Of a stretch of DNA of 10,603 bases, positions 1 through 10,603 are shown in pieces. A model generated the notes under the pieces. That model ran no database searches and was not told the DNA's origin. It saw nothing but the letters and a program-made list of their open reading frames with translations. Source of the DNA: a virus (taxonomy: Duplodnaviria > Heunggongvirae > Uroviricota > Caudoviricetes); the IMG/VR virus record IMGVR_UViG_2711768062_000001, one strand, 5' to 3'. Each line of letters begins with the position of its first letter. Position 1 is the stretch's first letter. The translations under genes and the position numbers were made by a program.

Positions 1-231
1 CAGCTGGCGTTTGAGACGTGCAATCTCGGTAGACATCTCCAGTTCACGTTCAGAAGACGTCTGCTGATTTTGCTGTTTACTGCGCCAGTTGTAGAGCTGT
101 GATTCATACAGGCTGAGTTCACGGGCTGCGGCAGTAACACCGATGCGTTCAGCAAGCTTCAGGGCTTCACTGCGAAATTCAGGCGAATGCTGTTTACGGG
201 GTTTTTTACTGGTTGATACTGTTTTTGTCAT
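1..231 (-). CDS. insE: IS3 transposase OrfA (InsE), N-terminal 77 codons; the 3' part and OrfB lie outside the window
   Basis: Minus-strand ATG at 231..229 opens MTKTVSTSKKPRKQHSPEFRSEALKLAERIGVTAAARELSLYESQLYNWRSKQQNQQTSSERELEMSTEIARLKRQL..., matching my recollection of IS3 InsE (HTH N-terminal domain). The frame is open to the window edge. Confidence 0.8.
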   Translation of the reverse strand, partial: MTKTVSTSKKPRKQHSPEFRSEALKLAERIGVTAAARELSLYESQLYNWRSKQQNQQTSSERELEMSTEIARLKRQL

Positions 232-296
232 GTGAGTCACCTCTGACTGAGAGTTTACTCACTTAGCCGCGTGTCCACTATTGCTGGGTAAGATCA
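1..296 (-). mobile_element. IS3 (IS3 family) left end, partial; the element continues beyond the window start
   Basis: Reverse complement of 241-296 reads TGATCTTACCCAGCAATAGTGGACACGCGGCTAAGTGAGTAAACTCTCAGTCAGAG, which I recognise as the IS3 terminal inverted repeat and leader, followed by the OrfA start. Sequence character changes abruptly at 297 (AT-rich prophage DNA). Only one end is visible, so the target-site duplication cannot be checked. Confidence 0.85.
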
Positions 297-438
297 TTTC
301 TCTACCTGCCGTTGGTGTTCGTGCCCGAGGCAGATAGCCTCAAGCACCCGCAGTCATTCTACTTAACTAAGATTTCCCCGCAAACCGTTTTTGTCCAGCA
401 CAGTAAATATCCAACTAAACCAATGGAGTTCGCTGTAT

Positions 439-618
439 TTACCGCCAGTATTCAATGCACATGACCGCCATGAACACCCCTAAAAAAAGGGCATTTATAT
501 ATCCAAATATTAATATCAAAACATCAACTTTTTCCATATACCTTGCTGTGAAGATGATGGGCATACATGATGCGAACAACCAGAACGCAACAAACAAAAA
601 CTGCAATGCGTTTTTCAT
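439..618 (-). CDS. small hydrophobic protein, 59 aa, two predicted transmembrane helices, unknown function
   Basis: MKNALQFLFVAFWLFASCMPIIFTARYMEKVDVLILIFGYINALFLGVFMAVMCIEYWR. Minus-strand GGAGG lies 7 nt upstream of the ATG at 618 (gattgtaGGAGGaataATG), so the internal ATG is preferred over the 72-aa start at 657 given in the ORF track. TAA stop at 441..439. Confidence 0.45.
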   Translation of the reverse strand: MKNALQFLFVAFWLFASCMPIIFTARYMEKVDVLILIFGYINALFLGVFMAVMCIEYWR

Positions 619-1052
619 TATTCCTCCTACAATCAATGTGCAATTACATTTAAACACACCTCAATTTGGCCGGACATATAAATATCTAAACCAGAAAAAA
701 TCACTTACATAGCGTTACAAACTCTTTAGTCTAAAGGTTCATCGTAAAACATTCCCCATACTTATCAGTCCGTTCCGCGCCAGGTAGCTCATTGCCTTAT
801 CTGGCAACCTGTAATCAGGTTTCCGCTTTTTCAGTTGGCTGGTCGTTTAACCGACATAGTTAACCCATTAATCTAGTTGCCGGATGTTGGTGGATTTTCG
901 CGTTTTAGTTGTTCATAAAAGTGCACAGCTTTAACCAATTCTTCTGATGTAACCGGGACTGGTGAGGCAGTGAATAAGGCCTGAATTTGATAGTTCGGCC
1001 TGTCGTTACAATCCTCTTTTTTCGGTACATATTTCCAGTCACCAGACCACTA

Positions 1053-1160
1053 CTTCCCCTGAAAGTCCGTAACGCCTTTTTTCACGTAGCGATATCGCCA
1101 TGTCACTGGTTTTGCTTGCCCCGCCGTTTCATGCCCTTCCTGATAATTAATCTCGCTCAT
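1053..1160 (-). CDS. micro-ORF, 35 aa hydrophilic (MSEINYQEGHETAGQAKPVTWRYRYVKKGVTDFQGK), hypothetical
   Basis: ATG at 1160..1158 preceded by a G-rich SD-like run (gaGTGGGGcgatgaATG); TAG stop at 1055..1053. Below the ORF-track size threshold; no homology recognised. Confidence 0.2.
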
Positions 1161-1397
1161 TCATCGCCCCACTCATCACAATATGCTTCGACCGGAGTTT
1201 TTCCCGCTTCATAGTCATCACGCTAGGATTCGACATCAGCAGCACTTCCACCGCGTAACTCACCATAGTCCATTAATAGTTCATCCCGCTCTTCAAAACT
1301 GATGTTATATTTAGCTGAACAAAAATCAGCCACTTTGTTCTTCCTCATCGTCTTTTATTTCGTGGTATGAGTAATTGCAGTAGTTAAAGAAAATTTC

Positions 1398-1508
1398 TTA
1401 TGCTCCGTCATGAATTTCATCAGGTGTTGCGTCATCGTCCACTTCGAATACATCCTCAAAATCTCCACCAGCTATTCCCGTTTCAATAATAATTTTGAAC
1501 TTTCGCAT
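1398..1508 (-). CDS. micro-ORF, 36 aa acidic (MRKFKIIIETGIAGGDFEDVFEVDDDATPDEIHDGA), hypothetical
   Basis: ATG at 1508..1506; on the minus strand an AGGAGG is followed by a GC hairpin (ccgccc-gaaa-gggcgg, plus-strand 1516-1531) and then the ATG, a geometry that could bring SD and start codon together. TAA stop at 1400..1398. Confidence 0.2.
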   Translation of the reverse strand: MRKFKIIIETGIAGGDFEDVFEVDDDATPDEIHDGA

Positions 1509-1770
1509 TTCACTACCGCCCTTTCGGGCGGCCTCCTGATGTTCTGAGGGTGCAGAAATCCATCCGGTTAAGGATTAAGTTTTATTTACAGAACTGAATT
1601 TAATTATTCAGATATACGTATCTGTAACCTTACGAATCTACTCACTGGATGCCTCTTTCATAAAAATAATCCAGTGGGTTTTATCGTTTTTTCCCTGTTC
1701 GTTGACAGATAACAGGCTTTCTATCTGTCAGTGCCAGAATCTGGCTTACCGGTATTTGCGTTTCATTCCA

Positions 1771-2127
1771 TTAAAAAATCAGAACGCCGTGCGGCCTCAA
1801 CACCCGAAAAGCTTCTTTAAATCTCTGTCGCAAATCATCACGCCAGGCATCTTTATTCAGCCGTCCATATTTCTTTCCCATCCAGGCGTTATCACCAACA
1901 CGCTCAAGATGCGGAGGGTCTAATACAACCATCGAAAAAGATGCGTCTGCAAATGATAATGCACGAAAATCTGCGATAATGTCAGGGCTGATAATCAAGC
2001 GTCTCCCATTGCGTAATGTGTATCCTTCTTTTCTGATATCGCTAAATATCGCCCGTTCGTCAGACTTATCGAACCAGAACATGCGGCTGCCACAGCACAT
2101 ATCAAGAATGGTTGCCGGTGCACTCAC
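1771..2127 (-). CDS. DNA methyltransferase-like protein, 118 aa, probably truncated by an in-frame TAA (see findings)
   Basis: Translation has an AdoMet-binding-like N-terminus (ILDMCCGSRMFWFD) and a (D/N/S)PP(Y/F/H)-type motif IV (VVLDPPHL) about 60 residues later, the order seen in amino-MTases. Start ATG overlaps the stop of the upstream 140-aa gene (ATGA at 2124-2127), implying translational coupling. Confidence 0.5.
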   Translation of the reverse strand: MSAPATILDMCCGSRMFWFDKSDERAIFSDIRKEGYTLRNGRRLIISPDIIADFRALSFADASFSMVVLDPPHLERVGDNAWMGKKYGRLNKDAWRDDLRQRFKEAFRVLRPHGVLIF

Positions 2128-2546
2128 TGCGCCACGTCCTGAAAATTACCCTGATAGAAAGCCAGTATGCGCTGCATAACTTCGCTCTTCCGGCACTCGC
2201 GACAGATTATGTTTAGGCGACTGTCGTAGCGACGTATTTCTCCGTCAGGTGATGACCAGATAAGGTCCGGATCAACCACAGCAGGTTTCTTCACCTTTGC
2301 CCTCGAGAGTTTTTTGCGGGCGTTTTGCCAGTCCTTACGCGCCTGTTCAGAGGGGAATAACCCGTAGCCGGAGTTGTATACATCGCCACTGGCTACCAGC
2401 TCTCTGGCAAGAACGCTCATCAGATATCTAGTCGCACCTGTTTTAGCTTCCAGTTGCCGTAACGTCTCACGGCCGCTCTGGCGCACGAGTTCCACCACCT
2501 GCCATTTAATTTTTTCCCGCTCTTCTTGTGTAAAAACTTTTGCCAC
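2124..2546 (-). CDS. hypothetical protein, 140 aa, basic, with a possible winged-helix-like segment
   Basis: Long open frame with a GTG start at 2546..2544 preceded by aaGGGGGActt; protein MAKVFTQEEREKIKWQVVELVRQSGRETLRQLEAKTGATRYLMSVLARELVASGDVYN.... No family recognised. Sits between the replication initiator and the MTase-like gene in the same operon. Confidence 0.55.
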   Translation of the reverse strand: MAKVFTQEEREKIKWQVVELVRQSGRETLRQLEAKTGATRYLMSVLARELVASGDVYNSGYGLFPSEQARKDWQNARKKLSRAKVKKPAVVDPDLIWSSPDGEIRRYDSRLNIICRECRKSEVMQRILAFYQGNFQDVAQ

Positions 2547-2586
2547 AAGTCCCCCTTAAAATTACCTCATGACCTGAAATCAACAC

Positions 2587-3552
2587 TTATCCTCTGAAAC
2601 CAGGCGGAATTTCTGTATCCGGTTCAGAAATATGATTAACACAACGCTGTACAGGTGAACGTCCCAGGCGGATGACCAGTTCGTCCCATTTTTCGCGGAG
2701 CTTTGACGGGCTCATGATGTTTTTTACCCAGAATGGATCTCGCTGAATCCGACCAAACATTTCGCAAATTTGTCTGTGGCTTCTGCCATCCAGCATCCGC
2801 ATTGTGCGCACGTCATTGGCCCAGGCAGTCCAGTTAGGCTCTTTTGGTCGCATGATCTCGCCATCATCACTGGCTGCCTGTTCGTAGAGACCCACGATCC
2901 GCCCCCAGATCCACTGCGCACACGCCAAATCCTCCCTGCTACCCCACTGGCGTTTTTTCGCACTAAACACAACCGCGTCGGAGTTCCGGGTTAAAAAATC
3001 CTGTTCAGTCGTCTGCGGGTCCGGTTGCGAAGCTTCCGGACGAAAAGTGTTTTTATTCTCTGTAGTAATCTCTGTTGTATTCTCTGTAAGATCATCAGGC
3101 CATTTTGACCCGATGACATTGGGTCGTTTTGAATCAATGGAGCGTTTCATTTTGACCTCTTCCATCGTGTCATTTTGACCTGATGGAGCGGCGCATTTTG
3201 AACCGATGGATTCGCTCAATTTGCCACCATCTAAAAGCTCGCTCCCATAGTTGATCGTGTAGAAATTGGTCATATCGCGCTTTGATTTATTGAGCTTTTC
3301 ACAACGCAAAAGCCCCAGCGTTTTCAGACTTGCAAACGCGCGCTTTAACGTTGACTCTGACCAGAATGGGAACTGTTCCAGCCATTGTTCCGTTGTGTTA
3401 TAAATCCAGCGAACACCATCACATTCCATGCCGGAGTTGGTATCTCTCAACCAGTAGTGCAGTTGTTGCAAAACAATGGCTTCGTTTAAGCCAATTTTCA
3501 TTGCCAGCTGCGTGTTTATAACCAGTGGGCGTTCAGCAAAAAGAAGGCTCAT
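2587..3552 (-). CDS. phage replication initiator (lambda O-like, two domains with low-complexity linker) containing the putative origin iterons
   Basis: Long ORF; ATG at 3552..3550 preferred (the track's 339-aa form starts at TTG 3606). N-terminal domain ...LVINTQLAMKIGLNEAIVLQQLHYWL...STLKRAFASLKTLGLLRCEKL, then a T/E/N/Q-rich linker, then a Trp-rich C-terminal domain. The linker-coding DNA holds an iteron array (3101-3230), as in the lambda O gene and ori-lambda. Confidence 0.6.
   Translation of the reverse strand: MSLLFAERPLVINTQLAMKIGLNEAIVLQQLHYWLRDTNSGMECDGVRWIYNTTEQWLEQFPFWSESTLKRAFASLKTLGLLRCEKLNKSKRDMTNFYTINYGSELLDGGKLSESIGSKCAAPSGQNDTMEEVKMKRSIDSKRPNVIGSKWPDDLTENTTEITTENKNTFRPEASQPDPQTTEQDFLTRNSDAVVFSAKKRQWGSREDLACAQWIWGRIVGLYEQAASDDGEIMRPKEPNWTAWANDVRTMRMLDGRSHRQICEMFGRIQRDPFWVKNIMSPSKLREKWDELVIRLGRSPVQRCVNHISEPDTEIPPGFRG
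3101..3230. repeat. origin-like iteron array: 5-6 direct repeats of core CATTTTGACC at about 23-bp period
   Basis: Copies start at 3101 (cattttgacc), 3125 (cgttttgaatc, degenerate), 3148 (cattttgacc), 3171 (cattttgacc), 3194 (cattttgaac) and 3218 (caatttgcca, weak). Flanked at 3057-3089 by three TCTCTGT copies at 12-bp period and a short AT-rich patch at 3040-3056. Confidence 0.6.
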
Positions 3553-4054
3553 AATTCCATCCAGCTTTTTGTTGGTATTGCTGTCGATACGCAAGCTTGA
3601 AAGCAATTGCTTTTTCTATAAGTTCGTCAGTTTCACGATCCACTACGGCAGGATCAGCAAAAAGCAGTCCGGACTCCACCACATCGCCATATTCTTTGTT
3701 TAACCCGGCGATCATGCACGTGATGCTTTTTCCGTCAGTAATTTCACGATACAACCTGAAATCACTAATCCGGATAGCCTCCATAATCGCAGGCACTAGC
3801 GCCGTGAACTTTTCACGCTTATCCCTGGTGTCGATAGCCTTCCAGCGTTCGAATATCTTCACTCGATTAACACCAAGCGCTCGCTGATCAACCGCGCCAC
3901 CTTCATCTGTGACACGCTGAACATCGATGTTCGGGCGCTCTTTCAAAGCCCAGAATGCTTCAGTGATTAATATCGTCGCCTGCTCCTGTGTCATTCCTGG
4001 TCGACATATCCAGGCATCCAGAGCCTCACGAGCCTGTTCAGGAGTGATTTTCAT
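3533..4054 (-). CDS. hypothetical early protein, 173 aa, immediately downstream of the cro-like gene (the position occupied by CII/YdaT-type regulators)
   Basis: ATG at 4054..4052 lies 17 nt inside the 3' end of dicC (aacaATGaaaatcactcctgaa), suggesting coupling; protein MKITPEQAREALDAWICRPGMTQEQATILITEAFWALKERPNID.... Function is inferred from position only. Confidence 0.55.
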   Translation of the reverse strand: MKITPEQAREALDAWICRPGMTQEQATILITEAFWALKERPNIDVQRVTDEGGAVDQRALGVNRVKIFERWKAIDTRDKREKFTALVPAIMEAIRISDFRLYREITDGKSITCMIAGLNKEYGDVVESGLLFADPAVVDRETDELIEKAIAFKLAYRQQYQQKAGWNYEPSFC

Positions 4055-4265
4055 TGTTCAACCGCCCCGCCCGCTTCGTCTTACGATATTCATCATAAAC
4101 TTTGGGATCATACTGAAGCTCCCCGCCAGATGCCTCCTGTAGACGCATCGCGCGACCTTCAGGAACCAGTATCCCCCAAGCAGCAACACTTGCCAGCCTC
4201 ACTCCTGCGGCATTGGCAAGCTTTGTTTTGCTGCCAAAAAAAGTAATTGCGTCAACTTTAAGCAT
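4038..4265 (-). CDS. dicC: DicC, Cro-like small DNA-binding protein (75 aa from the ATG; 76 with the preceding TTG)
   Basis: MLKVDAITFFGSKTKLANAAGVRLASVAAWGILVPEGRAMRLQEASGGELQYDPKVYDEYRKTKRAGRLNNENHS. Divergent from dicA across an 80-bp operator region; SD GAGGGGG 5 nt upstream of the ATG. Size and sequence match my recollection of Qin DicC. Confidence 0.7.
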   Translation of the reverse strand: MLKVDAITFFGSKTKLANAAGVRLASVAAWGILVPEGRAMRLQEASGGELQYDPKVYDEYRKTKRAGRLNNENHS

Positions 4266-4278
4266 CAAATCCCCCTCT

Positions 4279-4296
4279 TGTTAGACTTTTCTAACA
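4279..4296. promoter_or_regulatory. operator: perfect inverted repeat TGTTAGA-cttt-TCTAACA in the dicC/dicA intergenic region
   Basis: Read directly from the sequence: 7-bp arms, 4-bp spacer. Overlaps the -10 and predicted start site of the dicC promoter. A degenerate second copy (aattaga-atta-cctaact) lies at 4328-4345, abutting the dicA start codon. Confidence 0.6.
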
Positions 4297-4323
4297 TTAT
4301 TGTGCGCGGGATACCTAAGTCAA
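4296..4323 (-). promoter_or_regulatory. candidate sigma70 promoter for dicC (-35 TTGACT, 16-bp spacer, -10 AATAAT on the minus strand)
   Basis: On the minus strand, TTGACT is at plus coordinates 4323..4318 and AATAAT at 4301..4296. The predicted start falls inside the 4279-4296 operator. Confidence 0.4.
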
Positions 4324-4345
4324 GAAAAATTAGAATTACCTAACT

Positions 4346-4753
4346 ATGGATACAAGAACCCTGGGCCAGCGAGTTCTGGCGCGACGAAAAGAATTACGCT
4401 TAACACAACGAGAAGCCGCGCGCCTCGCTGGAGTTGCTCACGTCACAATTTCACAATGGGAAAGAGACGAAACCCAGCCAGTCGGAAAACGATTGTTTGC
4501 TTTAGCGGATGCTCTGAAGTGCTCACCTACATGGCTAATGTTTGGTGACGAAGACAAGGCACCAGTGCCTGCACAAGAACTTCATGTGGAAACAGAGCTA
4601 ACTCCCAACCACAAAGAATTGATCGAATTATTCGATGCTCTTCCATCTTCCGAGCAGGAAGCCTTGCTGTCTGAAATGCGCGCAAGAGTAGAAAACTTCA
4701 ACAAACTCTTCGAAGAAATGCTTAAAGCGCGTAAAAATAAATCAATAAAATAA
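4346..4753 (+). CDS. dicA: DicA, HTH (XRE/cI-type) repressor of the dicB operon, 135 aa
   Basis: MDTRTLGQRVLARRKELRLTQREAARLAGVAHVTISQWERDETQPVGKRLFALADALKCSPTWLMFGDEDK..., i.e. an N-terminal HTH followed by a C-terminal helical domain. Length, sequence character and context (divergent dicC, dicB operon downstream) match Qin DicA as I recall it. Confidence 0.8.
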   Translation: MDTRTLGQRVLARRKELRLTQREAARLAGVAHVTISQWERDETQPVGKRLFALADALKCSPTWLMFGDEDKAPVPAQELHVETELTPNHKELIELFDALPSSEQEALLSEMRARVENFNKLFEEMLKARKNKSIK

Positions 4754-4788
4754 CATTCTTTTCAAGTGATTAGTTGCGCCCACCCTTT

Positions 4789-4808
4789 TTGTTAGATCAA
4801 TCTAACAA
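4789..4808. promoter_or_regulatory. operator: perfect inverted repeat TTGTTAGA-tcaa-TCTAACAA upstream of the dicB operon
   Basis: 8-bp arms, 4-bp spacer, with the same half-site as the 4279-4296 operator. A degenerate third copy (tgttagg-ttat-tctaaat) at 4826-4843 overlaps the candidate promoter. Confidence 0.6.
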
Positions 4809-4815
4809 AAAACAC

Positions 4816-4844
4816 TTGCCTCTCATGTTAGGTTATTCTAAATT
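4816..4844 (+). promoter_or_regulatory. candidate promoter of the dicB operon (-35 TTGCCT, 17-bp spacer, -10 TAAATT)
   Basis: Weak match to the sigma70 consensus, flanked and overlapped by DicA-type operator copies; the first gene of the operon starts at 4922. Confidence 0.3.
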
Positions 4845-4921
4845 ATTTTCCATCAAGACACCGCACGGTGTTCTCAGCAAACAGTTCCGCTACCCCGGCG
4901 TTAAGGGGAAATGAGGTCAGC

Positions 4922-5077
4922 ATGGATACTATCGATCTTGGCAACAACGAATCTCTGGTGTACGGCGTGTTTCCAAACCAGGACGGCACGTTCACCGCAA
5001 TGACGTATACCAAAAGCAAAACGTTTAAAACCGAATCTGGAGCGCGTCGCTGGCTGGAAAGAAATTCAGGTGGGTGA
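4922..5077 (+). CDS. ydfA: YdfA-like small protein, 51 aa
   Basis: MDTIDLGNNESLVYGVFPNQDGTFTAMTYTKSKTFKTESGARRWLERNSGG; GAGG 6 nt upstream of the ATG. The internal start is preferred over the 69-aa form in the ORF track. First gene of the dicB operon, same length as K-12 ydfA. Confidence 0.7.
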   Translation: MDTIDLGNNESLVYGVFPNQDGTFTAMTYTKSKTFKTESGARRWLERNSGG

Positions 5078-5078
5078 T

Positions 5079-5207
5079 ATGGATTTCGACACAATCATGG
5101 AAAAGGCTTACGAAGAATACTTCGAAGGCCTTGCCGAAGGCGAAGAAGCTCTCAGCTTCAGCGAATTTAAACAGGCGCTTTCCAGTTCGGCAAAATCTAA
5201 CGGCTGA
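5079..5207 (+). CDS. ydfB: YdfB-like small acidic protein, 42 aa
   Basis: ATG at 5079, one nucleotide after the ydfA stop (tGAtATGg); MDFDTIMEKAYEEYFEGLAEGEEALSFSEFKQALSSSAKSNG. Below the ORF-track threshold. Same length and operon position as K-12 ydfB. Confidence 0.65.
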   Translation: MDFDTIMEKAYEEYFEGLAEGEEALSFSEFKQALSSSAKSNG

Positions 5208-5236
5208 TAAGCGAAACAGCACCGCAAGGAATCAGT

Positions 5237-5455
5237 ATGCAGAAACGAGAACCCGTTATCATCGCGCCAGACTATACCGATGATGAACTTTATGAGTGGA
5301 TGCACCAGAAAATTAATGCAGCGCAGGATCTGAAATGGGCTAATGAAGCCAGGGCTAAGCAGGCTGAAAATCTGTTCTCTCTGGAGCAGGATATCACCAA
5401 TCTGGAAAAAGCAGCGGCATTAAGCATTGCCAGAATGATTACATACCCGCGTTAA
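5237..5455 (+). CDS. ydfC: YdfC-like protein, 72 aa
   Basis: MQKREPVIIAPDYTDDELYEWMHQKINAAQDLKWANEARAKQAENLFSLEQDITNLEKAAALSIARMITYPR; SD-like aaggaa upstream. Same length and position as K-12 ydfC. Confidence 0.7.
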   Translation: MQKREPVIIAPDYTDDELYEWMHQKINAAQDLKWANEARAKQAENLFSLEQDITNLEKAAALSIARMITYPR

Positions 5456-5795
5456 TAGCTAACCAACGAAGCTAAGGTTGGTAATTAAGGAGTTCTCCAC
5501 GGGTGAGGTGGAGTGCGTGCGCCGGACACGGGTGAGCATCCGGCACTGACAGTTTACTGAAAGGATATTTCCCTGAAAAGTCAGACCATAACGCGAAAGC
5601 GCACGGCGAGGTAGCTGGTTCATAGATAGCCTGTCGTTAAATTTTCGTCGACCGTGCGCTTCCGGTTGTGGCAACCCGCGAAATGGCGCGGCGGTAAGTA
5701 TGGCGGGGTTATTCCTTCCCCGTTGAGGACACCGGGTTGTCAGGTTGACCATACGCTTAAGTGACAACCCCGCTGCAACGCCCTCTGTTATCAAT

Positions 5796-5853
5796 TTTCT
5801 GGTGACGTTTGGCGGTATCAGTTTTACTCCGTGACTGCTCTGCCGCCCTTTTT
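5796..5853 (+). ncRNA. dicF: DicF small RNA (Hfq-dependent sRNA that represses ftsZ translation), processed from the dicB operon transcript
   Basis: tttctggtgacgtttggcggtatcagttttactccgtgactgctctgccgccctttttaa matches the DicF sequence as I remember it, including the GGCGG...CCGCC stem and U-tract. It lies between ydfC and dicB, after a 340-nt untranslated spacer. Confidence 0.75.
5811..5853 (+). terminator. intrinsic terminator forming the 3' end of DicF (leaky; dicB and ydfD lie downstream)
   Basis: GC stem (ggcgg ... ccgcc) followed by CTTTTT at 5848-5853. Confidence 0.5.
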
Positions 5854-6022
5854 AAAGTGAATTTTGTGATGTGGTGAATGCGGCTGAGCGCACGCGGAAC
5901 AGTTAAAACCAAAAACAGTGTTATGGGTGGATTCTCTGTATCCGGCGTTAATTGTTAACTGGTTAACGTCACCTGGAGGCACCAGGCACCGCATCACAAA
6001 ACTCATTGTTGAGGGCGAGATA

Positions 6023-6211
6023 ATGAAAACGTTATTACCAAACGTTAATACGTCTGAAGGTTGTTTTGAAATTGGTGTCACTATCAGTAACCCTGTATTT
6101 ACTGAAGATGCCATTAACAAGAGAAAACAAGAACGGGAGCTATTAAATAAAATATGCATTGTTTCAATGCTGGCTCGTTTACGTCTGATGCCAAAAGGAT
6201 GTGCACAATGA
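6023..6211 (+). CDS. dicB: DicB, cell-division inhibitor (acts through MinC), 62 aa
   Basis: MKTLLPNVNTSEGCFEIGVTISNPVFTEDAINKRKQERELLNKICIVSMLARLRLMPKGCAQ; GAGGG 7 nt upstream of the ATG. The internal start is preferred over the 97-aa form in the track. Matches DicB as I recall it. Confidence 0.8.
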   Translation: MKTLLPNVNTSEGCFEIGVTISNPVFTEDAINKRKQERELLNKICIVSMLARLRLMPKGCAQ

Positions 6212-6399
6212 ATTCAGCATTTGCGCTTGTTCTGACAGTTTTTCTTGTTTCCGGAGTGCCAGTTGATATTGCAGTCAGTGTTCACAGGACAATGCAGGAG
6301 TGTATGACTGCAGCAACCGAACAGAAAATTCCCGGTAACTGTTACCCGGTCGATAAAGTTATTCACCAGGATAATATCGAAATCCCGGCAGGTCTTTAA
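6208..6399 (+). CDS. ydfD: YdfD, small membrane-anchored protein (reported to be lytic when overexpressed), 63 aa
   Basis: ATG overlaps the dicB stop (ATGA at 6208-6211); MNSAFALVLTVFLVSGVPVDIAVSVHRTMQECMTAATEQKIPGNCYPVDKVIHQDNIEIPAGL with an N-terminal hydrophobic helix. Length and position match K-12 ydfD. Confidence 0.7.
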   Translation: MNSAFALVLTVFLVSGVPVDIAVSVHRTMQECMTAATEQKIPGNCYPVDKVIHQDNIEIPAGL

Positions 6400-6492
6400 A
6401 ACAGTTCCGTAATAAATATCCGGTTTCATTCTTATATGCCAGCAATGGCAGGGATTTGTTCATCCTTAAATCTGTCATGAGGTTAAAACAAA

Positions 6493-8964
6493 ATGAGTAA
6501 AGTCTTTATTTGCGCCGCTATTCCTGACGAACTGGCAACAAGGGAAGAAGGCGCTGTGGCTGTAGCCACAGCCATTGAAGCTGGCGACGAACGCCGTGCT
6601 CGAGCAAAATTTCACTGGCAATTCCTGGAACATTATCCGGCTGCTCAGGACTGCGCTTATAAATTTATTGTCTGCGAGGATAAACCTGGTATACCCCGCC
6701 CTGCCCTCGATTCATGGGATGCTGAATATATGCAGGAAAACCGCTGGGATGAGGAGTCTGCTTCTTTTGTCCCGGTTGAGACTGAATCCGATCCGATGAA
6801 CGTCACTTTTGACAAGCTGGCCCCTGAAGTACAGAACGCTGTCATGGTTAAGTTCGACACATGTGAAAACATCACCGTTGATATGGTTATTAGCGCACAG
6901 GAATTGTTGCAGGAAGACATGGCAACATTCAACGGACATATCGTTGAAGCGTTGATGAAAATGCCAGAAGTTAACGCCATGTATCCGGAGCTTAAGTTGC
7001 ACGCCATTGGGTGGGTTAAGCATAAATGTATTCCTGGTGCTAAATGGCCCGAAATTCAGGCAGAGATGCGCATCTGGAAAAAACGTCGCGAAGGTGGACG
7101 CAAGGAAACCGGAAAATACACGTCTGTTGTTGATCTCGCCCGCGCCAGAGCCAATCAACAGTACACTGAAAATTCAACAGGAAAAATCAGCCCGGTCATT
7201 GCTGCCATTCATCGCGAATACAAGCAGACATGGAAAACACTGGATGACGAACTGGCCTACGCTCTCTGGCCTGGTGATGTGGATGCCGGAAACATTGACG
7301 GCAGCATCCATCGCTGGGCAAAAAATGAAGTTATCGACAACGACCGCGAAGACTGGAAGCGTATCTCGGCATCAATACGCAAACAGCCTGATGCCCTTCG
7401 CTACGACCGCCAAACTATTTTTGGCCTTGTCCGTGAGCGTCCGATCGACATTCACAAAGATCCCGTAGCACTGAACAAATATATCTGCGAATACCTGACG
7501 ACAAAGGGCGTGTTTGAGAATGAAGAAACAGACCTGGGCACTGTTGATGTTCTCAAGTCATCAGAAACACAAACTGATGCAGTGGAAACTGAGGTATCTG
7601 ATATCCCAAAAAATGAAACCGCACCGGAAGCTGAACCATCTGTAGAGCGTGAGGGGCCGTTCTATTTCCTCTTCGCAGATAAGGACGGAGAAAAATACGG
7701 TCGCGCAAACAAACTTTCTGGTCTGGATAAGGCACTGGCTGCTGGCGCCACTGAAATCACAAAAGAAGAATATTTTGCCCGAAAAAATGGCACATACACG
7801 GGCTTACCGCAAAATGTAGATACCGCTGAAGATTCAGAACAACCAGAGCCGATAAAAGTTACCGCTGACGAAGTAAACAAAATTATGCAGGCAGCCAATA
7901 TCAGCCAGCCTGACGCCGATAAGTTGCTTGCTGCATCACGTGGTGAATTTGTTGAAGGGATTAGTGACCCGAATGATCCGAAATGGGTTAAGGGGATCCA
8001 GACCCGCGATTCTGTGAACCAGAACCAGCATGAATCGGAACGGAACTACCAAAAAGCGGAACAAAACAGCCCAAATGCGTTACAAAACGAGCCAGAAACG
8101 AAACAGCCTGAATCAGTGGCGCAACAGGAAGTGGAAAAAGTCTGCACCGCCTGCGGTCAGACCGGCGGCGGCAACTGCCCTGATTGTGGCGCGGTGATGG
8201 GCGACGCAACATACCAAGAAACATTCGATGAAGAGTATCAGGTTGAAGTTCAGGAAGATGATCCGGAGGAAATGGAAGGCGCTGAACATCCACACAAGGA
8301 GAACGCTGGCGGCAATCAGCATCACGATAGCGATAATGAAACTGGCGAGACGGCAGATCACTCAATTAAGGTGAACGGTCATCACGAAATCACATCCACC
8401 AGCAGGACGTGTGACCATCTAATGATCGACCTTGAAACCATGGGAAAAAATCCTGATGCCCCGATCATCTCAATAGGTGCAATATTTTTCGATCCGCAAA
8501 CCGGAGATATGGGACCGGAATTTAGTAAGACTATCGATCTGGAAACTGCTGGCGGAGTCATTGATCGGGACACCATTAAATGGTGGCTTAAGCAATCACG
8601 CGAAGCGCAATCGGCCATTATGACCGATGAAATCCCGTTAGATGATGCACTGTTACAATTGCGGGAATTTATCGACGAAAACTCCGGTGAATTTTTTGTT
8701 CAGGTTTGGGGAAATGGAGCCAACTTCGACAACACGATTTTGCGCCGTTCATACGAACGGCAGGGGATCCCCTGCCCGTGGCGTTACTACAACGATCGCG
8801 ATGTACGCACAATCGTTGAGCTGGGGAAAGCCATAGACTTCGATGCCAGAACGGCTATTCCATTCGAAGGTGAGCGCCATAATGCACTTGATGACGCCCG
8901 TTACCAGGCAAAATACGTTTCAGTTATCTGGCAAAAACTGATCCCGAGTCAGGCTGATTCTTAA
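6493..8964 (+). CDS. ydfE: YdfE, full-length form (823 aa): N-terminal domain of unknown function, acidic low-complexity linker with a C4 zinc ribbon, C-terminal DEDDh 3'-5' exonuclease domain
   Basis: Uninterrupted 2472-nt ORF with GAGG upstream. The N-terminus MSKVFICAAIPDELATREEGAVAVATAIEAGDERRARAKFHWQFLEHYPAAQD matches my recollection of the K-12 YdfE fragment. C-terminal motifs MIDLETMG (Exo I), WGNGANFD (Exo II) and ERHNALDDARYQA (Exo III, His variant); zinc ribbon CTACGQTGGGNCPDCG at about 8143-8200. Confidence 0.8.
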   Translation: MSKVFICAAIPDELATREEGAVAVATAIEAGDERRARAKFHWQFLEHYPAAQDCAYKFIVCEDKPGIPRPALDSWDAEYMQENRWDEESASFVPVETESDPMNVTFDKLAPEVQNAVMVKFDTCENITVDMVISAQELLQEDMATFNGHIVEALMKMPEVNAMYPELKLHAIGWVKHKCIPGAKWPEIQAEMRIWKKRREGGRKETGKYTSVVDLARARANQQYTENSTGKISPVIAAIHREYKQTWKTLDDELAYALWPGDVDAGNIDGSIHRWAKNEVIDNDREDWKRISASIRKQPDALRYDRQTIFGLVRERPIDIHKDPVALNKYICEYLTTKGVFENEETDLGTVDVLKSSETQTDAVETEVSDIPKNETAPEAEPSVEREGPFYFLFADKDGEKYGRANKLSGLDKALAAGATEITKEEYFARKNGTYTGLPQNVDTAEDSEQPEPIKVTADEVNKIMQAANISQPDADKLLAASRGEFVEGISDPNDPKWVKGIQTRDSVNQNQHESERNYQKAEQNSPNALQNEPETKQPESVAQQEVEKVCTACGQTGGGNCPDCGAVMGDATYQETFDEEYQVEVQEDDPEEMEGAEHPHKENAGGNQHHDSDNETGETADHSIKVNGHHEITSTSRTCDHLMIDLETMGKNPDAPIISIGAIFFDPQTGDMGPEFSKTIDLETAGGVIDRDTIKWWLKQSREAQSAIMTDEIPLDDALLQLREFIDENSGEFFVQVWGNGANFDNTILRRSYERQGIPCPWRYYNDRDVRTIVELGKAIDFDARTAIPFEGERHNALDDARYQAKYVSVIWQKLIPSQADS

Positions 8965-9036
8965 TGTTCAACTGTCGCCGGTTGTGACTGGTATTCTGCA
9001 ACCGGCGCTCGTCTGATGTAAGAGATAAAGAAATCG

Positions 9037-9288
9037 ATGAGCGAAGTAATCATGATTGTCTCTCCCGGCAAATGGGTATCCGAAGAGCAGTTAATTGCGC
9101 TGAAAGGAATAAAAAAAGGTACGTTAAAAAAGGCCCGGGAAAAATCGTTTATGGAAGGAAGGGAATATAAGCATGTCGCTCATGACGGTATGCCATGGGA
9201 TAACAGTCCATGCTTTTACAACCTGGAAGAAATTGATCGCTGGATTGAGCGCCAGGCATCAGCAAGACCAAGACGTCATCTTACTTGA
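9037..9288 (+). CDS. excisionase-like protein (Xis family), 83 aa
   Basis: Small basic protein directly upstream of the integrase; contains ...EGREYKHV..., reminiscent of the DGREYLFHE segment of lambda Xis. The true start may be the internal ATG (IMIVSP). Confidence 0.6.
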   Translation: MSEVIMIVSPGKWVSEEQLIALKGIKKGTLKKAREKSFMEGREYKHVAHDGMPWDNSPCFYNLEEIDRWIERQASARPRRHLT

Positions 9289-9322
9289 CTAAAAGCCACA
9301 CTAACTAATGAGAGAAGTTGAA

Positions 9323-10603
9323 ATGAAATATCCGACAGGCGTGGAAAACCATGGAGGGAAATTACGTATCTGGTTTGTTTATAAAGGCGTAAGAGTCAGG
9401 GAAAACCTGGGGGTTCCTGACACAGCAAAAAACAGGCGCGTTGCAGGTGAGCTACGCGCCTCTGTTTGTTACGCAATAAAAACTGGTGTTTTCGACTATG
9501 CAAAACAGTTTCCCTCCTCACGCAATCTGGAAAAATTTGGTGAGACTCGACAAGATTTAACCATAAAAGAACTGGCTGAAAAATTTCTGGCACTGAAAGA
9601 AACTGAAGTCGCAAAAACATCACTCAACACATACCGTGCCGTCATCAAAAATATCCTGAGCATAATCGGTGAAAAAAATCTTGCCTCATCGATTAATAAA
9701 GAAAAATTACTGGAGGTTCGTAAAGAGCTACTGACTGGATACCAGATCCCCAAAAGTAACTATATTGTTACACAACCAGGGAGATCGGCTGTAACTGTAA
9801 ATAATTACATGACAAATCTTAACGCCGTGTTCCAGTTTGGTGTTGATAACGGTTACCTGGCAGATAACCCGTTTAAGGGGATCTCGCCATTAAAGGAATC
9901 AAGAACCATTCCGGATCCTCTTTCGCGGGAGGAATTCATCCGTCTTATCGATGCGTGCAGAAATCAGCAAGCCAAAAATTTATGGTGTGTTTCTGTTTAT
10001 ACTGGCGTTCGCCCTGGTGAGCTGTGTGCACTTGGATGGGAGGACATAGATCTGAAAAATGGAACAATGATGATCAGGAGAAATTTAGCAAAAGACCGTT
10101 TCACGGTACCAAAAACACAGGCGGGAACCAATCGGGTCATTCATCTTATTAAGCCAGCAATCGACGCTCTCCGGAGTCAGATGACATTAACGAGACTGAG
10201 CAAAGAGCATATCATTGATGTTCACCTCAGAGAGTATGGCAGAACAGAAAAACATAAATGCACCTTTGTTTTTCAACCTGAAGTGTCAGCGAGAGTAAAA
10301 AATTATGGTGACCATTTTACCGTTGACTCAATAAGGCAGATGTGGGACGCAGCGATAAAACGTGCCGGACTCCGCCATCGAAAATCATATCAGTCGAGAC
10401 ATACTTATGCCTGCTGGTCGCTGACAGCTGGTGCTAATCCGGCATTTATAGCAAACCAGATGGGCCATGCAGATGCGCAAATGGTATTTCAGGTATACGG
10501 AAAATGGATGTCTGAAAACAATAATGCACAGGTAGCTTTGTTAAATACACAGTTAAGCGAGTTTGCCCCAACCATGCCCCATAACGAAGCAATGAAAAAT
10601 TAA
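9323..10603 (+). CDS. tyrosine site-specific integrase (phage integrase family), 426 aa from the preferred ATG (431 aa from 9308)
   Basis: N-terminal arm-binding-like region (KYPTGVENHGGKLRIWFVYKGVRVRENLG) and C-terminal catalytic region with candidate Arg (GVRPGELCAL), His-x-x-Arg (SRHTYACWSL, MGHADAQ) and Tyr (FQVYGKWM) residues. Stop codon at the last three bases of the window. By synteny this is the counterpart of intQ, which is a pseudogene in K-12. Confidence 0.85.
   Translation: MKYPTGVENHGGKLRIWFVYKGVRVRENLGVPDTAKNRRVAGELRASVCYAIKTGVFDYAKQFPSSRNLEKFGETRQDLTIKELAEKFLALKETEVAKTSLNTYRAVIKNILSIIGEKNLASSINKEKLLEVRKELLTGYQIPKSNYIVTQPGRSAVTVNNYMTNLNAVFQFGVDNGYLADNPFKGISPLKESRTIPDPLSREEFIRLIDACRNQQAKNLWCVSVYTGVRPGELCALGWEDIDLKNGTMMIRRNLAKDRFTVPKTQAGTNRVIHLIKPAIDALRSQMTLTRLSKEHIIDVHLREYGRTEKHKCTFVFQPEVSARVKNYGDHFTVDSIRQMWDAAIKRAGLRHRKSYQSRHTYACWSLTAGANPAFIANQMGHADAQMVFQVYGKWMSENNNAQVALLNTQLSEFAPTMPHNEAMKN

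Follow-up and report, generated by a model that had tools for sequence, protein, structure and literature searches.

An intact dicBF operon in the early-left arm of a Qin/mEp460-type prophage and a conserved structured RNA ahead of DicF

The window analysed here is a stretch of DNA of 10,603 nucleotides, read on the plus strand as given, and all coordinates refer to it as a whole. There is hardly any doubt that positions 4922–6399 hold an intact dicBF operon, placed in the early-left (PL-equivalent) arm of a Qin/mEp460-type lambdoid prophage and endowed with control, processing and functions like those of Escherichia coli K-12. The genes lie in the order ydfA-ydfB-ydfC-dicF-dicB-ydfD on one strand, 3′ of the divergent pair dicC/dicA, which is the arrangement that defines the dicBF operon. 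A first-pass annotation of this DNA had proposed a complete plus-strand operon with this order and these gene lengths, and all its features are present and the same as in the K-12 annotation; that reading is supported, and the operon is a known and well-studied prophage module. Within this locus, among the oldest known for an sRNA, the gap ahead of dicF holds a covariation-supported RNA fold that is common to phage P1 and many lambdoid phages.

Every part of the operon is identified and intact, and all of them are encoded on the plus strand. The first gene, ydfA (4922–5077, 51 aa), matches DUF1391 in Pfam (E = 8.8e-29) and shares 49/51 residues with K-12; ydfB (5079–5207, 42 aa; phrog_2061, E = 1.3e-27) is identical to its K-12 counterpart at 42/42 residues, and ydfC (5237–5455, 72 aa; phrog_1744, E = 1.1e-38) at 69/72. 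After a gap of 340 nt (5456–5795) come dicF and a 174-nt leader (5849–6022; 170/174 nt identical to K-12), followed by dicB (6023–6211, 62 aa) and by ydfD (6208–6399, 63 aa), which encodes a lysis protein (PMC8835842), matches DUF1482 (Pfam E = 2.2e-25) and retains 61/63 residues of K-12. DicB matches the Pfam family of the same name (PF05358) at E = 1.9e-40 with 136.8 bits, against a gathering score of 27, over residues 1–62 of 62. PHROG families are matched by YdfA, YdfB, YdfC and YdfD; an assignment of YdfC to TcA_TcB_BD was rejected at 16.9 bits, under the cut-off of 25. None of the five reading frames is interrupted, and their proteins are 96–100% identical to K-12. Agreement of this degree greatly exceeds what chance would give. 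Both of the tight junctions noticed at first reading are real: the ydfA stop TGA (5075–5077) is separated from the ATG of ydfB by the single base T5078, and dicB and ydfD overlap in ATGA (6208–6211). Translational coupling at these junctions is possible, and since a Shine-Dalgarno-like motif precedes each operon gene, the sequence does not require it. The leader also gives a sub-threshold Rfam match to STnc100 at 5860–6000 (38.4 bits vs a gathering threshold of 47).

From about 4852 to the ydfD stop (6399), the sequence agrees with K-12 at 1519 of 1548 nt (98.1%) with zero indels, and the stretch 5605–5989 contains zero differences. The first-pass annotation had suggested this alignment, and instead of poor identity it gave a full match for DicF (53/53 nt, b1574) and DicB (62/62 residues). 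The dicBF operon of the K-12 MG1655 Qin prophage (b1571–b1576) agrees with the window in gene order, in the length of each gene, in the 1-nt gap and the ATGA overlap, and in the untranslated stretches of 340 and 174 nt, and it occupies the same chromosomal site adjoining rspB. It differs in its promoter-operator region, which is 75% identical, in its repressor genes, and in the downstream arm, where K-12 carries ydfE and intQ as pseudogenes with an IS2 insertion (IS2E) between them, whereas here ydfE, xis and int are intact. The ydfE-type exonuclease gene (6493–8964, 823 aa, full-length), the excisionase gene (9037–9288) and the integrase gene (9323–10603) all lie on the plus strand, and K-12 ydfE is listed as part of the dicBF operon (PMC10448788). 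Many E. coli chromosomes are 100% identical to the window; in them it occupies the Qin site, with rspB adjoining the integrase, and RefSeq annotates ydfA, ydfB, ydfC, dicB and ydfD in these identical genomes. Of 5426 complete E. coli genomes, 4759 contain parts of the operon. With the 98.1% match to K-12 and this wide occurrence, the operon finding is already known, and as the re-identification of a textbook prophage module it matters little.

Upstream of the operon lie two regulators. A dicC-type Cro-like regulator (4038–4265, minus strand, 75 aa; Pfam P22_Cro, E = 4.9e-12; RefSeq “Cro/CI family transcriptional regulator”) is the same as K-12 DicC in its C-terminal two thirds and divergent at its N-terminus. 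The dicA-type CI-like repressor (4346–4753, plus strand, 135 aa; Pfam HTH_3, E = 1.5e-14) is a divergent allele, equal in length to K-12 DicA and identical at 76 of 138 aligned residues (~56%), so that this prophage may differ from K-12 in its inducing signals and in its cognate antirepressor. Palindromes of the pattern TGTTAGR-N4-TCTAA occur at four sites, as six strand-hits against 0.04 expected by chance; two lie in the dicC-dicA intergenic region (4279–4345) at 4279–4296 and 4330–4345, and two in the dicBp region (4790–4844, plus strand) at 4790–4807 and 4826–4841. These operator repeats correspond to the repeat families D1, I2 and I9. The hexamers of dicBp (−35 TTGCCT, 4816–4821; −10 TAAATT, 4839–4844) and a start site near 4852 were placed by eye and by K-12 alignment and are putative; dicBp was missed by an automatic promoter scan. 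The two operators would bracket this −35 and overlap this −10, and when the region is aligned to K-12 and to two further immunity types the −35 and −10 positions are conserved and the leader is invariant from about 4850. In K-12, DicA represses dicBp (PMC10448788). Putative control of the present operon through its operators, as the first reading held, is supported by these sites, with the qualification that the repressor acting on them would be a divergent DicA allele.

The sRNA gene dicF was located by the first-pass annotation at 5796–5853. The location holds, with Rfam RF00039 matching at 5797–5848 (76.7 bits, gathering threshold 48, E = 6e-16, model positions 1–52 of 52); the annotated 53-nt form ends at 5848, and the further bases to 5853 are the U-tract of its terminator. 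This terminator consists of a predicted hairpin at 5811–5847 (−15.9 kcal/mol) followed by UUUUU at 5849–5853. A generic terminator scan did not call it, probably because its loop exceeds the size limit. In K-12, RNase III cuts the transcript between +813 and +814 to give a 190-nt DicF species, RNase E processing gives the 53-nt DicF, and the DicF terminator stops most transcripts (PMC10448788). With a start near 4852, the RNase III site would fall at about 5663–5665 here. The published length of the ydfABC-dicF transcript, 1,146 nt (PMC10448788), disagrees with this start, as a cut at +813/814 plus 190 nt amounts to about 1,003 nt.

By analogy with the K-12 experiments, which were done on sequence 98–100% identical to that of the window, the operon probably works as follows. 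The DicA-type repressor would hold it silent by binding the palindromic operators at dicBp, and when repression is lifted, transcription would run from about 4852 through ydfA, ydfB and ydfC. Most transcripts would end near 5853 at the intrinsic terminator that forms the 3′ half of DicF, and some would pass it into dicB and ydfD. RNase III would cut at the base of a long hairpin to release the 190-nt species and RNase E at 5795/5796 to release the 53-nt DicF, which with Hfq would pair with the ftsZ, manX, xylR and pykA mRNAs and lower their translation, as DicF is an Hfq-dependent repressor of these genes (PMC5069750, PMC9438474). DicB would bind MinC and bring it to the septal ring via ZipA, so that FtsZ rings are dissolved, and would block ManYZ-dependent entry of phage DNA, both being known activities of DicB (PMC6832061); YdfD would inhibit IspG and cause lysis. 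The functions of DicF and DicB named at first reading, antisense regulation and action through MinC and ManXYZ, agree with this literature.

The gap between ydfC and dicF had been described as a 340-nt untranslated spacer, and its length stands; it is structured and conserved, and not inert. Folding the RNA of this locus and of related ones gives a long imperfect hairpin on the plus strand at 5586–5671, which we take as the probable RNase III substrate. Its lowest helix joins CCAUAAC (5586–5592) to GUUGUGG (5665–5671), and the latter is also the 5′ strand of a second element, a four-way junction of ~115 nt at 5665–5779 (plus strand) that makes up the 5′ portion of the 190-nt precursor of DicF. 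This element comprises the closing helix P1 (5665–5672/5772–5779), the stems SL-A (5676–5680/5687–5691), SL-B (5704–5708/5718–5722) and SL-C (5734–5742/5762–5770), and a pseudoknot between GUAUGG (5698–5703) and CCAUAC (5749–5754). Covariation supports the fold: 96.3% of the alignment cells are paired, against 31–56% when the partners are slid, and 8–9 pairs are changed on both sides, against 2.2–3.3 in shuffles, with none of 500 shuffles reaching that number. SL-B is retained across at least eight different stem sequences. Each of 77 loci carries a single copy, and the element occurs in lambdoid and P1-type phages. An intrinsic-terminator-like hairpin with a T-run follows within ~45–100 nt in 111 of 112 loci, in at least eight unrelated terminator sequences, and 39 of the 112 loci, among them those of cdtI-type phages and of phage P1, have the element and a terminator without the DicF seed. 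We found no earlier description of this conserved folded RNA in the literature covered, the original work on the 190-nt DicF precursor lying outside it; a permissive cmscan of 4700–6500 against Rfam 15 to E = 5 returned only DicF, the sub-threshold STnc100 match and noise, with nothing at the element. Three open reading frames of the spacer region, two on the reverse strand (5459–5794 and 5824–6159, 111 aa each) and one on the plus strand (5654–5764, 36 aa), were rejected as genes and are ascribed to chance, since homologues show indels of 1, 3 and 4 nt as well as compensatory changes of paired bases; the only one scanned, 5459–5794, has no Pfam match.

Our working proposal, offered tentatively, is that 5665–5779, the 5′ ~130 nt of the DicF precursor, belongs to a so far uncharacterised class of structured RNAs in the early operons of lambdoid and P1-type phages of Enterobacterales, and would either control terminator read-through, and with it the dosage of the two toxic genes dicB and ydfD, or be a stable RNA in itself, DicF being an add-on between element and terminator. 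The first of these two roles, which we regard as possible though doubtful, would make the element a cis regulator of elongation, either a put-like processive antiterminator or an attenuator sensing a ligand or protein, that sets the read-through of the next terminator, here that of DicF, and thus the amount of dicB and ydfD expression. Its position in early operons, 3′ of repressor-controlled promoters, its complex pseudoknotted fold with invariant loops, and the terminators of unrelated sequence that follow it so regularly are consistent with such a role. Pfam and PHROGs recognised no N-like antiterminator protein among early-left ORFs from cdtI, 2H10, mEp460 and strain 2014C-3307, which also fits, though it is not proof of absence. 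Against it, K-12 transcripts mostly end at the DicF terminator (PMC10448788), and no conserved alternative pairing of the element with the terminators was seen. In the minimum-energy fold 5685–5696 pairs with the 3′ strand of the DicF terminator hairpin; this pairing was considered as a conserved antiterminator and rejected, because it would disrupt SL-A and finds no complementary counterpart in terminators of the P1 type.

The comparison with the put RNAs also weighs against elongation control. The putL and putR sites of HK022 and the putL-like site of HK639 are likewise multi-stem-loop cis RNAs upstream of terminators, in early operons of lambdoid phages with no recognised N gene, and put suppresses termination in a manner dependent on the zinc-binding domain of the RNA polymerase beta′ subunit (PMC9378689). 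However, put RNAs consist of two stem-loops in ~70 nt (PMC9378689), whereas the element is a ~115-nt four-way junction with a pseudoknot. An nhmmer search of the HK022 immunity region with the element profile gave no match at the put sites, a covariance model of the element (R1) gave none in HK022 at E ≤ 1, and in HK639 the sole match up to E = 10 was weak (E = 4.9) and away from the annotated putL-like site. The element was therefore rejected as a put member for want of similarity in sequence or structure to known put sites. If it does set read-through, it would explain how phages dose their toxic early genes and would add an RNA-based control of elongation distinct from both N/nut and put.

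An equally tentative explanation takes the element as a processing scaffold only, which together with the upstream hairpin would place the two cuts, by RNase III and by RNase E, that free DicF. The element begins at the mapped RNase III cut and stops 16 nt 5′ of the RNase E site (PMC10448788), and the upstream hairpin and P1 compete for the one strand GUUGUGG. On the other hand, in the 39 loci that keep element and terminator without the DicF seed there is no DicF to free, and a scaffold for its release fails to explain conservation there. Phage P1 is a case in point. The “dicF-like region” in the leader of its ban operon (NC_005856, 68791–68892) is the same element, with 77.6% identity and 87.5 bits in the covariance model, and is followed as here by an intrinsic terminator, whose hairpin (GCCCAUCUUCGGGUGGGC) is unrelated. 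P1 lacks the DicF seed and dicB, and its element begins ~36 nt after the Pban start without the upstream RNase III hairpin.

It is rather unlikely, by our estimate, that element and terminator form an independent stable ncRNA of ~150–190 nt that acts in trans, for example by binding a host protein, with the DicF seed inserted later between body and terminator. The 190-nt species does accumulate in K-12, but RNase E turns it over there (PMC10448788), and such an RNA has no known partner or phenotype. The architecture of other loci would suit it: cdtI-type loci have kept UUUGGCGGUACCAG, a homologous 5′ arm of the terminator, immediately 3′ of the element and lack the 5′ single-stranded part that precedes the hairpin in DicF, and in P1 the RNA would begin at the Pban start and end at the first terminator.

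As for the prophage that carries the operon, the upstream replication region is partly pseudogenised in the matching genomes, so that, this intact left arm apart, the prophage is probably defective. That the operon itself is a decayed, non-functional remnant merely resembling dicBF is most improbable: the frameshifted genes and the IS fragment of that replication region could be taken to favour it, but the five intact frames with proteins 96–100% as in K-12, the identical DicF, the presence of promoter, operators and terminator, and the full-length exonuclease, xis and int genes, unlike those of K-12, all speak against it. Some E. coli strains thus carry a complete, uninterrupted Qin left arm with another immunity allele. 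The phages mEp460 (LR597641), Evi, HannyBb, Tritos and vB_EcoS-813R8 are 98–99% identical to the window over 5456–6022 and share the order of repressor, ydfA-like gene, structured element, DicF, dicB, ydfD, a 2472-nt exonuclease gene, xis and int. mEp460 differs in having a 121-aa ORF where the window has ydfB and ydfC, and in its operator type, with the half-site TGAG...CTCA.

The plus-strand interval 4922–6399 holds the dicBF operon, in the order ydfA (4922–5077, 51 aa), ydfB (5079–5207, 42 aa), ydfC (5237–5455, 72 aa), dicF (5796–5848), dicB (6023–6211, 62 aa) and ydfD (6208–6399, 63 aa); the protein genes were placed from the ORF list and raw sequence, and dicF by mapping the 53-nt K-12 annotation onto the window. 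The first-pass annotation had recognized the operon from its gene order and lengths, and the MG1655 annotation of the Qin cryptic prophage agrees, lengths and spacings being exactly equal. The observation is real and its interpretation correct, and the finding is already known. The alignment to the K-12 operon that had been proposed as a check gives high identity throughout: 96% of nucleotides for ydfA, 98% for ydfB (with an identical protein) and for ydfC, 98.2% for the spacer between ydfC and dicF (5456–5795), 53/53 nt for dicF, 170/174 nt for the leader between dicF and dicB (5849–6022), 62/62 aa for DicB and 61/63 aa for YdfD. Overall, 29 substitutions and no indels separate 4852–6399 from K-12, none of them within 5605–5989. 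Pfam recognizes DicB, YdfA (DUF1391), YdfD (DUF1482), the repressor (HTH_3) and the dicC-like gene (P22_Cro), while PHROGs has families for YdfA, YdfB, YdfC and YdfD, all labelled unknown function. DicF itself is matched by Rfam at 5797–5848 (76.7 bits, E=6e-16, threshold 48); its presence is thus confirmed, but the annotated form stops at 5848, and the end at 5853 given earlier simply includes the U-tract. A single base does lie between the ydfA stop (5075–5077) and the ydfB start, and dicB and ydfD do share ATGA at 6208–6211. Since every gene of the operon is preceded by its own Shine-Dalgarno-like motif, translational coupling at these tight junctions is only a possibility.

Window 297–10603 occurs at 100% identity in many E. 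coli chromosomes, in which RefSeq annotates the same genes and rspB comes next after the integrase, this being the Qin site. Of 5426 complete E. coli genomes, 4759 contain parts of the query, and 2212 carry 80% or more of it at a single location; the same arm is present in functional lambdoid phages such as mEp460.

Because the sequence is 98–100% identical to K-12, the experimental results obtained there can be transferred to the window. In K-12, the operon promoter dicBp is repressed by DicA and relieved via the antirepressor Rem, urea or heat; a single transcript spans ydfABC-dicF and a longer form extends to ydfD; cleavage by RNase III between +813 and +814 yields a 190-nt DicF form, and the 53-nt form is an RNase E product (PMC10448788). 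DicF depends on Hfq and acts as a repressor of ftsZ, manX, xylR and pykA (PMC5069750, PMC9438474), DicB works via MinC and ZipA and prevents phage entry that depends on ManYZ (PMC6832061), and the lysis protein YdfD inhibits IspG (PMC8835842). Given a start near 4852, the RNase III cut would fall at ~5663–5665 and the 190-nt RNA would stop at ~5853, the end of the U-tract, so that cut position and RNA length are mutually consistent on window coordinates. The ydfABC-dicF transcript calculated from the cut, the 190 nt and the promoter position is ~1,003 nt, as against a published 1,146 nt (PMC10448788).

The promoter region was placed by an intergenic alignment of the window, K-12 and two other immunity types, in which a putative −35 (TTGCCT, 4816–4821; TTGACC in K-12) and the position of a −10 (TAAATT, 4839–4844; TAATCT in K-12) are conserved; a generic promoter scan did not call dicBp. 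There is a sharp mosaic boundary at ~4850: upstream, promoter-operator DNA is variable and immunity-type-specific, whereas downstream the transcribed leader is nearly invariant across the four immunity types. We infer that transcription starts at ~4852, that is, at this boundary. The operator pattern TGTTAGR-N4-TCTAA has four sites (0.04 expected by chance), at 4279–4296 and 4330–4345 between the dicC-like and dicA-like genes and at 4790–4807 and 4826–4841 upstream of ydfA. The predicted operators retain the TGTTAG half-site of K-12. The repressor (4346–4753, 135 aa) equals K-12 DicA in length but shares only ~56% identity with it, and the DicC-type Cro (4038–4265) differs from K-12 DicC at its N-terminus. 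From these comparisons the arm, Qin-like in other respects, seems to carry a distinct immunity allele in its repressor/Cro pair.

The gaps on either side of dicF are the 340-nt spacer (5456–5795) and the 174-nt leader (5849–6022). The length earlier given for the untranslated spacer stands, but the spacer is not featureless: it contains a long hairpin and a structured element, the sole part of the operon that might be new. In a BLAST search of 5456–6022 against phage genomes, the block 5665–5787 also appeared in phages without dicF or dicB. The sequences support a conserved, covariation-backed four-way junction of ~115 nt with a pseudoknot at 5665–5779 (plus strand), composed of a closing helix, P1 (5665–5672 with 5772–5779), stem-loops SL-A (5676–5680 with 5687–5691), SL-B (5704–5708 with 5718–5722) and SL-C (5734–5742 with 5762–5770), and the pseudoknot (5698–5703 with 5749–5754). 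With 63 distinct sequences aligned by MAFFT, 96.3% of cells form standard pairs as against 31–56% with slid partners, and eight pairs change on both sides as against 2.2±1.1 in shuffles, none of 500 shuffles reaching eight. Fitting 72 distinct sequences to the model gives an alignment with 96.6% paired and nine two-sided changes, although this alignment is biased towards the structure used for fitting. The sequences were gathered by exact patterns inside the element and are mutually related. The SL-B hairpin is preserved across at least eight different stem sequences, the P1 helix alternates among GU, GC and UA pairs, and a U-A pair of the pseudoknot becomes C-G in the phage P1-type lineage. 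The element has no match to an Rfam family, and no earlier description of the fold was found in the literature covered, outside which lie two key older papers.

In phages cdtI, 2H10 and F1055 and in Stx2c phages the element is flanked by the repressor gene on one side and the early-left genes on the other; it also occurs in phage mEp460 and in prophages of Citrobacter, Trabulsiella and Erwinia, and in phage P1 it is found ~36 nt downstream of the Pban start, formerly labelled a 'dicF-like region'. Pattern scanning recovered 120 loci from IMG/VR. In species-representative genomes it found one chance match and 18 true loci, the latter in Escherichia, Shigella, Citrobacter, Trabulsiella and Erwinia, among them several metagenome bins whose taxonomic labels are unexpected.

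The element is accompanied by further hairpins. Upstream, the long hairpin (5586–5671, plus strand) closes with CCAUAAC paired to GUUGUGG. Such hairpins occur in Qin, cdtI, F1055, Citrobacter and Erwinia types, those of the latter four having different sequences at the same place, and in all of them the lowest helix takes up GUUGUG(G). Since this is also the 5′ strand of the P1 helix, upstream hairpin and P1 helix are mutually exclusive. The position at which RNase III cuts in K-12 corresponds to the 3′ base of the hairpin (~5663–5665), at the hairpin/element junction. Downstream, a terminator-like hairpin with a T-run follows the element within ~45–100 nt in 111 of the 112 loci with enough flank, at least eight terminator sequences being in use; the DicF seed is absent from 39 of the 112. 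In cdtI-type loci the terminator has a 5′ arm, UUUGGCGGUACCAG, that is homologous to the DicF one, and the 5′ single-stranded part that precedes the hairpin in DicF is missing, which suggests that DicF evolved out of the terminator belonging to the element module.

The element may serve as a scaffold for processing, regulate read-through of the terminator or be an independent stable RNA, three readings that we rank as roughly equal. No N-type protein family was recognized among the neighbouring early genes tested. As a put RNA the element was rejected, having no similarity to the HK022 or HK639 put RNAs.

Within the leader, 5860–6000 (plus strand) gives a sub-threshold Rfam match to the Salmonella sRNA STnc100 (RF02076; 38.4 bits, threshold 47, E=2e-6). 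Other prophages, including Rac-type ones, contain unannotated relatives of this stretch. Outside its left arm the prophage of the window is probably defective: RefSeq reports a frameshift in the SAM-dependent methyltransferase region (1771–2216), and most genomes with the 100% match lack window 1–296 and have an ISEsa1 fragment nearby. The segment 6493–10603 (plus strand) encodes a YdfE-type protein of full length (823 aa) whose C-terminal part is an Rv2179c-like 3′-5′ exonuclease domain (E=2.6e-67), followed by intact excisionase and integrase genes. Over its first 765 nt the ydfE-type gene agrees with the K-12 ydfE fragment at 762 of 765 positions; in K-12, however, ydfE and intQ are pseudogenes with an IS2 insertion (IS2E) between them, whereas the copies in the window are intact.
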